From Escherichia coli (GTDB taxonomy: Bacteria; Pseudomonadota; Gammaproteobacteria; Enterobacterales; Enterobacteriaceae): a stretch of DNA of 64,000 nt. A program made the translations under genes and the position numbers. The stretch lies in NCBI RefSeq assembly GCF_051903065.1, contig NZ_CP178438.1; one strand, 5' to 3'. A model generated the notes under the pieces. That model searched no databases. It worked only from the letters and a program-made list of their open reading frames with translations, and was not told the origin of the DNA. Shown piece by piece: positions 9,700 to 48,554 of this stretch (position 1 is its first letter; every line of letters starts with the position of its first letter).

Positions 9700-9882
9700 T
9701 TTCAGGAAGTAATGGTGGTGGGGGAAGGATTACTAGCGCTTCGCCCTTCGGGTCGTTGCCTGCGGCAACGCTTTCTCGCTGGCGCTCGAGTCGAACCTTA
9801 GTCGAAGCTTCTCATCCTTCCCCGCTTGGGCAGAATATTTAATTACGGATTCGTTTGAGAGTTCAGGGACTTTTGAAAGTGA
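9700..9882 (-). repeat. tyrT operon 3' trailer repeat region (tpr/rtT-like), about one unit
   Basis: Contains a copy of the last 19 nt of tRNA-Tyr (tggtggtgggggaaggatt at 9713-9731) about 170 bp downstream of the second tRNA, plus a tpr-like ORF (minus-strand ATG at 9815) interrupted by TAA after 5 codons. Confidence 0.6.
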
Positions 9883-9967
<85 letters not shown>

Positions 9968-10001
9968 AGGGGTAATTCAAATTTCGAGGTAATGCTTGAG
10001 A

Positions 10002-10086
<85 letters not shown>

Positions 10087-10129
10087 ACGGGGTAATGCTT
10101 TTTACTGGCCTGCTCCCTTATCGGGAAGC

Positions 10130-16870: not shown

Positions 16871-18296
16871 TAATGCCGATCAGTTAAGGATCAGTTGACC
16901 GATCCAGTGGCTGTGTAAGAATCCGGAAACGCTCACTCGTTTCCGGATTTTTTTATGCACATTGGACAGGCTCTTGATCTGGTATCCCGTTACGATTCTC
17001 TGCGTAACCCACTGACTTCTCTGGGGGATTACCTCGACCCCGAACTCATCTCTCGTTGCCTTGCCGAATCAGGTACTGTAACGCTACGCAAGCGCCGTCT
17101 TCCCCTCGAAATGATGGTCTGGTGTATTGTTGGCATGGCGCTTGAGCGTAAAGAACCTCTTCACCAGATTGTGAATCGCCTGGACATCATGCTGCCGGGC
17201 AATCGCCCCTTCGTTGCCCCCAGTGCTGTTATTCAGGCCCGCCAGCGCCTGGGAAGTGAGGCTGTCCGCCGCGTGTTCACGAAAACAGCGCAGCTCTGGC
17301 ATAACGCCACGCCGCATCCGCACTGGTGCGGCCTGACCCTGCTGGCCATCGATGGTGTGTTCTGGCGCACACCGGATACACCAGAGAACGATGCAGCCTT
17401 CCCTCGCCAGACACATGCCGGGACCCCGGCGCTCTACCCGCAGGTCAAAATGGTCTGCCAGATGGAACTGACCAGCCATCTGCTGACGGCTGCAGCCTTC
17501 GGCACGATGAAGAACAGCGAAAATGAGCTTGCTGAGCAACTTATAGAACAAACCGGCGATAACACTCTGACGTTAATGGATAAAGGTTATTACTCACTGG
17601 GATTGTTAAATGCCTGGAGCCTGGCGGGAGAACACCGCCACTGGATGATCCCTCTCAGAAAGGGAGCTCAATATGAAGAGATCAGAAAACTGGGTAAAGG
17701 CGATCATCTGGTGAAGCTGAAAACCAGCCCGCAGGCACGAAAAAAGTGGCCGGGACTGGGAAATGAGGTGACAGCCCGCCTGCTGACCGTGACGCGCAAA
17801 GGAAAAGTCTGCCATCTGCTGACGTCGATGACGGACGCCATGCGCTTCCCCGGAGGAGAAATGGCGGATCTGTACAGTCATCGCTGGGAAATCGAACTGG
17901 GATACAGGGAGATAAAACAGACGATGCAACTGAGCAGGCTGACGCTGAGAAGTAAAAAGCCTGAGCTTGTGGAGCAAGAGCTGTGGGGTGTCTTACTGGC
18001 TTATAATCTGGTGAGATATCAGATGATTAAAATGGCGGAACATCTGAAAGGTTACTGGCCAAATCAACTGAGCTTCTCAGAATCATGCGGAATGGTGATG
18101 AGAATGCTGATGACATTGCAGGGCGCTTCACCGGGACGTATACCGGAGCTGATGCGCGATCTTGCAAGTATGGGACAACTTGTGAAATTACCGACAAGAA
18201 GGGAAAGGGCCTTCCCGAGAGTGGTAAAGGAGAGGCCCTGGAAATACCCCACAGCCCCGAAAAAGAGCCAGTCAGTTGCTTAACTGACTGGCATTA
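16871..18296 (+). mobile_element. IS4 insertion sequence, complete 1426 bp
   Basis: Imperfect 18-bp terminal inverted repeats (TAATGCCGATCAGTTAAG... / ...CTTAACTGACTGGCATTA); single intact transposase ORF; flanked by 12-bp direct repeat CCCCAGAAGGGG (16859-16870 and 18297-18308). Confidence 0.92.
16955..18283 (+). CDS. IS4 transposase (DDE), apparently intact
   Basis: 442-aa [43 protein letters not shown]... recognised as IS4-family transposase; no internal stops. Confidence 0.9.
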
Positions 18297-35357: not shown

Positions 35358-35551
35358 GCACTCTCCTTGAGTTTTATGCAGGTGTTAATTAGCGGGCAAT
35401 TGTACCCTGGTTAAGCCTCGGGTGGCAGCATCAGGTCTTGTATGGAAAAGCATATCTTTGTAAAGCGGAGGTAATTGCTGGCCTTCAGGCGTGGGCAAAC
35501 CGCGGCAAGTGGCGATCGAGTTAATATTTGCGTAGCGAAAATATTTAAAAA

Positions 35552-45795: not shown

Positions 45796-46412
45796 GCCAG
45801 TTTTTTTATATTCATCCTGATAACCCACAGCAACGTCTGATCAACCAGGCGGTGGAGATCGTGCGTAAAGGCGGGGTGATTGTTTATCCAACTGATTCCG
45901 GCTATGCGCTCGGCTGTAAAATTGAAGATAAAAACGCCATGGAGCGTATTTGTCGTATTCGCCAGCTGCCGGACGGTCACAACTTTACCCTGATGTGTCG
46001 CGATCTTTCTGAACTCTCGACCTATTCATTTGTCGATAACGTTGCGTTTCGTTTAATGAAAAATAACACGCCGGGCAACTATACCTTCATCCTGAAGGGG
46101 ACGAAGGAAGTGCCACGCCGTCTGTTGCAGGAAAAACGCAAAACCATCGGTATGCGTGTGCCTTCTAACCCGATTGCGCAGGCGTTGCTTGAAGCACTGG
46201 GCGAACCGATGCTTTCCACTTCGCTAATGCTGCCAGGCAGCGAATTTACCGAATCCGATCCCGAAGAAATTAAAGACCGTCTGGAAAAACAGGTAGATTT
46301 GATTATTCACGGCGGCTATCTCGGGCAGAAACCGACAACGGTTATTGATCTTACCGATGATACGCCGGTCGTGGTGCGTGAAGGCGTAGGTGATGTGAAG
46401 CCTTTCTTATAA
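45792..46412 (+). CDS. yciO: YrdC/Sua5-family dsRNA-binding protein YciO
   Basis: 206 aa from the ATG at 45792 (MSQFFYIHPDNPQQRL...); ATGA overlap with the yciV stop. Confidence 0.88.
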   Translation: MSQFFYIHPDNPQQRLINQAVEIVRKGGVIVYPTDSGYALGCKIEDKNAMERICRIRQLPDGHNFTLMCRDLSELSTYSFVDNVAFRLMKNNTPGNYTFILKGTKEVPRRLLQEKRKTIGMRVPSNPIAQALLEALGEPMLSTSLMLPGSEFTESDPEEIKDRLEKQVDLIIHGGYLGQKPTTVIDLTDDTPVVVREGVGDVKPFL

Positions 46413-46439
46413 CAAATTGCGTTCCACGGATGGAAGACT

Positions 46440-48342
46440 ATGGCAGGGAAGTTTCGCTGCATTTTGCTGTTGATAGCAGGGCTGTTTGTATCATCTCTAA
46501 GTTATGCAGATAACACGGAGATCCCTTCTTATGAAGAAGGGATCTCGCTCTTTGATGTTGAAGCCACTCTGCAACCGGATGGGGTGCTCGACATCAAAGA
46601 GAACATTCATTTTCAGGCGCGAAATCAGCAGATTAAGCACGGATTTTATCGTGATTTACCACGACTATGGATGCAGCCTGATGGTGACGCGGCGCTGCTG
46701 AACTATCGCATTATTAGCGTCACCCGTGATGGTATTCCTGAACCCTGGCATCATGACTGGCATATCGGGTTAATGAGTATTGTCGTGGGCGATAAACAAC
46801 GTTTCTTGCCTCAAGGCGACTATCATTATCAAATTCATTATCAGGTTAAAAATGCTTTCCAGCGTGAGGGAGATTCAGATCTGTTAATCTGGAACGTGAC
46901 TGGTAACCACTGGCCGTTTGAAATCTATAAGACCCGATTTCCACTCAAGTTCCCTGATATCGCGGGTAATCCATTTAGCGAAATCGATCTCTTTACTGGA
47001 GAAGAGGGCGACACATATCGAAATGGCCGCATCCTTGAGGACGGAAGAATTGAATCCAGCGATCCGTTTTATCGTGAAGATTTCACGGTACTCTATACTC
47101 TACCGTTGGCCTCACTCGTTACTTAGCAATGCCCCGGCTCCGCAAACGACGAATATTTTCAGCCATCTTCTTTTACCCTCCACGTCATCGTTGTTAATTT
47201 GGTTTCCGTGTCTGTTCCTGGTTTGTGGATGGTTATATCTCTGGAAGCGCAGGCCGCAATTTACGCCGGTAGATGTGATTGAAACCGATGTCATTCCGCC
47301 AGATTACACGCCCGGCATGTTACGTCTCGATGCGAAGCTGGTTTACGACGATAAAGGTTTTTGTGCCGATATCGTAAATCTGATTGTGAAAGGAAAAATT
47401 CATCTGGAAGATCAGTCTGACAAGAACCAGCAAATCCTGATTCGTGTTAATGAAGGCGCGACCAGAAATAATGAGGTATTACTGCCCGCAGAGCAGTTAT
47501 TACTGGAAGCGTTATTTCGTAAAGGCGATAAGGTCGTTCTTACGGGGAGACGCAACAGAGTCTTACGCAGGGCATTTTTACGGATGCAGAAATTTTATCT
47601 GCCGCGTAAAAAGTCTTCGTTTTACCGGCCTGATACTTTTTTGCAATGGGGTGGACTGGCAATATTGGCGGTCATTCTTTACGGTAACCTGAGTCCTGTA
47701 GGCTGGGCAGGAATGAGTCTGGTGGGCGATATGTTTATTATGATCTGCTGGCTTCTTCCTTTTTTATTTTGTTCCCTTGAGCTTTTGTTTGCCCGCGATG
47801 ATGACAAGCCTTGCGTTAATCGTGTAATCATCACTTTGTTTTTACCGCTGATTTGTTCAGGCGTGGCCTTTTATTCTCTCTATATCAATGTCGGAGATGT
47901 ATTCTTTTACTGGTATATGCCAGCGGGTTATTTTAGCGCTGTTTTCCTGACCGGTTATCTCACTGGTATGGGGTATATTTTTCTGCCAAAGTTTACCCAA
48001 ACTGGGCAGCAACGTTATGCCCACGGTGAAGCTATCGTTAACTATCTTGCGCGTAAAGAGGCGGCAACACACAGTGGGCGGCGGCGGAAAGGGGAAACAC
48101 GGAAACTGGATTACGCGTTGCTAGGTTGGGCAGTCTCAGCAAACCTTGGAAGAGAATGGGTAGCACGTATCACCCCATCACTCACAGCGGCTGTTAGCGC
48201 CCCGGAAATTGCCCGTAGTGGCGTTTTGTTCTCATTACAGATGCACCTGAGTCTGGGGGCCAATACCAGTTTGTTGGGGCGAAGTTATTCCGGTGGTGGT
48301 GCTGGCGGCGGCGCGGGTGGCGGAGGCGGTGGTGGCTGGTAA
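46440..48342 (+). pseudogene. yciQ: DUF2207-type membrane protein YciQ, interrupted by an apparent +/-1 frameshift
   Basis: N-terminal 228 codons in frame 0 end at TAG 47124-47126; the remainder (to the Gly-rich C-terminus ...GGGAGGGAGGGGGGGW) continues in the +1 frame, which is open from 46900; the two frames overlap at 46900-47126. Confidence 0.6.
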
Positions 48343-48554
48343 TTAAGCTGATGATAATCGAAACAAGCTTTAACCATAAAGATAGTGTAGTATGTTGCGC
48401 CTCAAAGCCAGGCCAGTTAAAACGTCGAGTCGTTTACTTAAGGCCTGAAGAGTTCAAACAGACTTTACTATCAGTGAGTCAGATGTAAGTTCTGACTCAC
48501 TGTTGCACAAAAGCATATCAGACGCCTGGGAAGGCGACACCAAAAGGAAGCTCT

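Follow-up and report, generated by a model that had tools for sequence, protein, structure and literature searches.

The yciQ gene of this Escherichia coli clone is very probably a recent, lineage-specific pseudogene, generated by a 7-bp tandem duplication that has cost the cell its full-length YciQ, a loss tolerated because the gene is dispensable. The lesion lies in a window of 64,000 nucleotides, by which we mean the whole stretch of DNA that was analysed. The initial annotation of this window, made from the sequence alone, had named the gene and the frameshift correctly, and had guessed at a single-base indel. This guess must be corrected as to size: seven bases have been duplicated exactly and in tandem (with a net shift of +1), and the allele is genuine, not the product of an error. 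The layout of the split gene, in coordinates of the window, is the following.

46440..48342, + strand: full extent of the yciQ pseudogene, 1903 bp (against 1896 bp in intact alleles)
46440..47126, + strand: ORF1, ATG start, 228 aa, TAG stop at 47124-47126 (from the ORF list and the sequence)
46897..46899, + strand: TGA bounding the +1 frame upstream (direct reading of the sequence)
47089..47102, + strand: the lesion, two adjoining exact copies of a 7-bp unit (TACTCTA at 47089-47095 and TACTCTA at 47096-47102)
47098..48342, + strand: +1-frame remainder of yciQ (native residues 218-631), comprising TM1, a cytoplasmic region, a TM cluster and a Gly-rich tail

ORF1 is made of a signal peptide and a periplasmic DUF2207 N-terminal domain (native codons 1-219), followed by nine out-of-frame codons, TLPLASLVT, and the TAG. 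The +1 frame is open from 46900, because the TGA immediately upstream closes it, and it overlaps ORF1 over 230 bp; its product displays hydrophobic segments and ends with the Gly-rich tail …GGGAGGGAGGGGGGGW. The two-frame layout proposed at the outset, with its 228-aa ORF1, its stop and the start of the open +1 frame, was exact to the base. The accompanying remark that the combined length was close to that of a 631-aa YciQ also holds, as both the repaired ORF and the YciQ protein of E. coli K-12 count 631 aa.

Over 100% of its 1903 bp, the stretch matches yciQ, annotated as 'DUF2207 domain-containing protein', in 3967 complete E. coli genomes, where most alleles are 1896 bp long. It occupies the orthologous position, between yciO and rluB, in the conserved order rnm-yciO-yciQ-rluB, and in the annotated genomes that were opened yciQ is always located between these two neighbours. 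The counterpart in strain K-12 (b1268; WP_001326916.1), a DUF2207 inner-membrane protein, is encoded at the same rnm-yciO-yciQ-rluB locus with 95.2% DNA identity over its full length. Once the window allele is repaired, the two proteins share the N- and C-terminal Pfam domains of DUF2207, a length of 631 aa and the same Gly-rich C-terminus. By contrast, K-12 yciQ is one continuous ORF and reads GGTCCTCTACCG where the window has GGTACTCTATACTCTACCG and a +7 frameshift at codon 219/220, and the two alleles are further separated by 30 other amino-acid differences.

Alignment with reference yciQ genes, the check that the initial annotation had in view, locates the indel. Against all intact alleles there is a single 7-column gap, at 47089-47095, and zero 1-bp gap in the window sequence, which dismisses the single-base indel. 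As had been anticipated, the lesion falls in the last few tens of base pairs before 47126, its two copies occupying the stretch 24-37 bp ahead of the stop. The local sequence is GG-TACTCTA-TACTCTA-CCG in the window, whereas K-12, CFT073 and TUM13936 read GG-TCCTCTA-CCG at the same site, and XJ34, JNE151685, CUWW06, O145 and O157 read GG-TACTCTA-CCG; the latter five alleles, from other E. coli, carry a single GGTACTCTACCG(T/C)TGG. Removing one TACTCTA copy restores a clean ORF of 1896 bp and 631 aa, with zero internal stops and both DUF2207 domains. ORF1 begins to diverge from this repaired protein after ...FTVLY, and 13-30 residues separate the repaired protein from other intact alleles. It is this comparison with intact alleles, not the repeat itself, that identifies the duplication as the lesion: exact two-copy 7-mer tandem repeats occur three times in the window against 3.2 expected in shuffled sequences, a chance frequency, so that statistical oddity cannot serve as proof.

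If K-12 were the only reference, the site could be read as an insertion with a simultaneous substitution (TCCTCTA vs TACTCTATACTCTA), possibly templated. However, intact alleles bearing TACTCTA exist, and therefore the synonymous GTC>GTA variant predates the duplication: the substitution came first. An allele that already had the GTA variant (GGTACTCTACCG) would then have gained a second TACTCTA heptamer, presumably by replication slippage or by short tandem duplication, a mechanism to which flanking microhomology, beyond the repeat itself, lends no support. Frameshift pseudogenes created by short tandem duplication, via slipped-strand mispairing, form a common class in bacterial genomes. The present allele resembles them in its exact head-to-tail copy, of a length that is not a multiple of three, in its early stop just downstream and in a gene that is otherwise intact. 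Indeed, apart from the duplication there are zero further stops in the gene, and this lack of further decay argues for a recent event.

Frameshifts seen in single assemblies are often errors, and one might suspect that the true yciQ is intact and that the seven extra bases are an artefact of sequencing or assembly, all the more as the -1 change that strain TUM13936 shows in a run of five A could be an error of this kind. Yet an exact 7-bp tandem copy is atypical for a homopolymer error, and identical yciQ DNA is present in three RefSeq complete genomes (NZ_AP045789.1, NZ_AP045800.1 and NZ_CP083585.1), obtained in two countries and in different laboratories. The carriers are strains 23CRST027 and 23CRST031 from Ecuador, the former (NZ_AP045789.1) isolated from human faeces, and ECNB21-M121, isolated from meat in China. 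Furthermore, the exact 228-aa product, including its nine aberrant C-terminal residues, is found on 176 public contigs (about 202 blocks) in the collections of NCBI, ENA and Logan, the last of which contributes short-read assemblies. Members of the clone that show separate SNPs relative to the window (single changes at 46302, 47759 and 48219) all retain the duplication, which is therefore older than the diversification of the clone and stably inherited. A lesion that is defined against intact alleles, an ORF that is restored by repair and a change that recurs in independent assemblies are what characterizes a genuine pseudogene. An artefact thus has a vanishingly small chance of being the explanation: the 7-bp duplication is a real, vertically inherited allele of one clone.

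As for the clone itself, the window aligns with NZ_AP045789.1 over all 64 kb at 99.995% identity, with two mismatches and one gap, so that it belongs to the E. coli chromosome of the clone of strain 23CRST027. The allele is confined to that clone: among 3977 records, only three have at least 99% identity to it. Two annotations were opened, those of NZ_AP045789.1 (23CRST027) and NZ_CP083585.1 (ECNB21-M121), and in both the PGAP label is 'DUF2207 domain-containing protein, frameshifted'. We are dealing, then, with an ordinary pseudogene, already annotated in RefSeq as frameshifted.

Several other features of the region may be recorded here. According to the annotation of the 99.995%-identical record, a copy of IS1A lies at ~1860-2557, between narK and narG, and a copy of IS4 at ~16955-18283, between tdk and adhE; no annotated gene is interrupted by either of them. 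An internal repeat of ~97 bp, visible in a self-comparison of the window at 9881-10096, corresponds to a tandem pair of tRNA-Tyr genes (tyrTV) with the rtT sRNA downstream, and this is the ordinary arrangement, as in K-12. A 90-bp remnant of a gene of the YkgJ family, which codes for a cysteine-cluster protein, subsists without its N-terminus at ~35385-35474 on the - strand, between yciC and ompW; this remnant and yciQ are the only two pseudogenes flagged in the window. Finally, NZ_CP083585.1 (ECNB21-M121) matches window positions 36000-60000 in two pieces that span 24,777 bp for a query of 24,001 bp; this strain therefore has an extra ~776 bp, the size of an IS, absent from the window.

What the duplication does to the protein can be followed domain by domain. 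With Pfam membership judged by the gathering score of each domain, PF09972 (DUF2207, N-terminal) is recognized on residues 35-176 of ORF1 with 86.6 bits (cut-off 24.4, E=2.9e-24), and PF20990 (DUF2207_C, membrane) on the +1-frame part with 40.7 bits (cut-off 33, E=3e-10). A hydropathy scan displays a hydrophobic N-terminus resembling a signal peptide at residues 2-23 and, in the repaired protein, TM1 at ~241-265 and a TM cluster at ~418-482. The native reading frame ends with codon 219, in the interval between the two Pfam domains and a short way ahead of TM1. Past this codon the +7 insertion shifts the frame, adding nine wrong codons up to the stop at 47124-47126, and the remaining 412 codons, specifying TM1, the cytoplasmic region, the TM cluster and the Gly-rich tail, are left out of frame and without a recognizable start. 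Because the C-terminal part is in this situation, full-length YciQ would be lost in the clone. A product would still be possible in the form of a DUF2207 N-domain fragment, exported by its signal peptide to the periplasm and deprived of its membrane anchor. Since the signal peptide and the entire N-terminal Pfam domain are kept, such a soluble fragment may have residual or altered activity. As the event is recent, purifying selection might conceivably act on the fragments of yciQ too.

The location of the break invites another reading, in which the gene would be functional as a split gene, the periplasmic N-domain and the membrane C-part being made as two polypeptides that keep the activity of YciQ jointly or separately. 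The break separates the two Pfam domains exactly and lies shortly ahead of TM1, ORF1 keeps its signal peptide, the downstream part carries no further disabling mutation, and gene callers predict there an ORF of 355 aa. This ORF, however, starts at GTG 47275, which is beyond TM1 and has no Shine-Dalgarno sequence, and a search of the native sequence upstream of TM1 for +1-frame start codons with a Shine-Dalgarno match found none, so that an independent start for the downstream ORF is rejected. The initial annotation had also considered that yciQ might naturally consist of two ORFs, and this is not what is found, all intact orthologues being single ORFs. In addition, the split arrangement is confined to one recent clone (3/3977 records at the 99% threshold), and outright loss of yciQ in many lineages means that there is nothing that requires preservation. 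It is therefore very unlikely that the split gene functions as such. A functional member of the YciQ family would be encoded by one uninterrupted ORF; here this ORF is split by the 7-bp duplication at codon 219/220, and the gene is therefore a pseudogene of the DUF2207 family, not a functional member of it.

A different way to save YciQ would be a reversible switch, with the heptamer serving either for phase variation, in the manner of contingency repeats, or for programmed frameshifting, so that some full-length protein would still be made. In principle slippage can remove one unit of a two-copy tandem duplication precisely, and the frame would then be restored. In contrast with contingency loci, yciQ has no repeat tract of several units, only two copies of the heptamer, and no evidence of switching; in intact orthologues the heptamer occurs once and the ORF is undivided. 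Restoration of the frame by the ribosome would require a -1 (or +2) shift between 47089 and the TAG at 47124, an interval where reading by eye reveals no slippery heptamer of the X XXY YYZ type. In the clone only the duplicated state is observed, exact-match look-ups having found no one-copy, reverted state among the 24 contigs read and the three complete genomes. The exact repaired 631-aa protein, whether as the intact ancestor or as a revertant, is absent from a collection of ~15 billion proteins searched by exact look-up. We thus consider a switch to be extremely improbable, and retain a stable pseudogene as the preferred interpretation.

A scan of the locus for promoters and terminators brought zero promoter-like sites and nothing that bears on the frameshift. 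It did flag as terminator-like, within the coding sequence, a perfect inverted repeat at 46518-46546 (+ strand; yciQ codons ~27-36), with arms of 13 bp and a loop of 3 nt, GAGATCCCTTCTT ATG AAGAAGGGATCTC. The corresponding RNA hairpin has a predicted MFE of -22.3 kcal/mol (z = -3.6). The palindrome is kept in all alleles examined; it stays perfect in JNE151685 because two changes compensate each other, C>G on the left arm and G>C on the right arm, and in the O157 allele there is a change in the left arm only. It may represent a selected hairpin, or else the outcome of quasipalindrome-templated mutation, and it bears no relation to the frameshift.

That a lesion of this kind persists has to be placed in the context of the species. 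The yciQ DNA is absent in 1450 of 5426 complete E. coli genomes (27%), and the region that flanks it is present in 5422 of them. In AR437, one yciQ-less genome that was opened, yciO and rluB are 100 bp apart; there, ~66 bp of unrelated sequence with a GGCGCC…GGCGCC hairpin (1114-1179 of the NZ_CP029108.1 locus) replaces window positions 46413-48520. Elsewhere the gene is damaged: in O157:H7 an in-frame deletion of 312 bp leaves a protein of 527 aa, in strain E8 yciQ has an IS1 insertion, and in strain 2A a 10-bp deletion. TUM13936 (NZ_CP134358.1), the closest non-clonal relative at 98.6% identity, has its own -1 change, in a run of five A at the equivalent of window position 46848; this frameshift may be genuine, and then a second inactivation of the gene, or else a sequencing error in the homopolymer. 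All these alleles resemble that of the window in that the same gene was independently lost or damaged, and differ from it in that each has its own lesion and position, the 7-bp duplication being specific to the clone studied here. Sequence divergence tells about constraint as well: dN/dS is 0.17-0.34 when the repaired yciQ is compared with other alleles, and dN is 0 for yciO and rluB in comparison with K-12. Moreover, in strain engineering yciQ is used as a neutral site for integration (PMC11943725). The gene is dispensable, accessory-like and weakly constrained in E. coli, which is why the duplication allele is tolerated, and its loss in the clone is probably neutral. In this light, the statement that yciQ was the only disrupted conserved gene in the window has to be divided: in the 99.995%-identical record PGAP indeed flags just yciQ plus the small YkgJ-family remnant, but yciQ is not strongly conserved, as more than a quarter of complete genomes do without it.

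The recurrence of such events could also be thought to reflect something other than neutrality. Absence in 27% of the genomes, the in-frame deletion of O157:H7, the IS1 insertion of E8 and three or more distinct frameshifts, that of the window included, suggest the idea that loss of yciQ is selected for, either because an envelope protein is exploited by a phage or a toxin or because it has a cost in some niche; alternatively, the N-domain freed of its anchor would have a new or residual activity. We hold these proposals to be unlikely, and neutral loss of a dispensable gene as the preferred account.

Little can be borrowed from other work on the function of the protein. No function is assigned to YciQ in the literature searched, and DUF2207 is uncharacterised; a pan-genome paper lists yciQ under 'regulators' without supporting evidence. 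A search of NCBIfam models with YciQ returned zero matches, and its sequence matches in the PDB are limited to the low-complexity Gly tail, with zero solved homologues. In the literature searched, the only DUF2207 protein found with a published phenotype is SMU.243 of Streptococcus mutans, annotated in the same Pfam family; its deletion mutant, studied for growth, tolerance of stress and the formation of biofilms, is viable, so that SMU.243 is not essential (PMC10457818). This is a distant Gram-positive homologue, likened to YciQ by its annotation, and it says nothing direct about the E. coli protein.

Taken by itself, the case is one of routine pseudogenisation of a dispensable gene with no assigned function, and it matters little. 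Of wider use is the observation that many E. coli lineages have lost yciQ or carry it in damaged form, a fact to be kept in mind in work on DUF2207, when yciQ is assumed to be a core gene, and when it is employed as a neutral site of integration.
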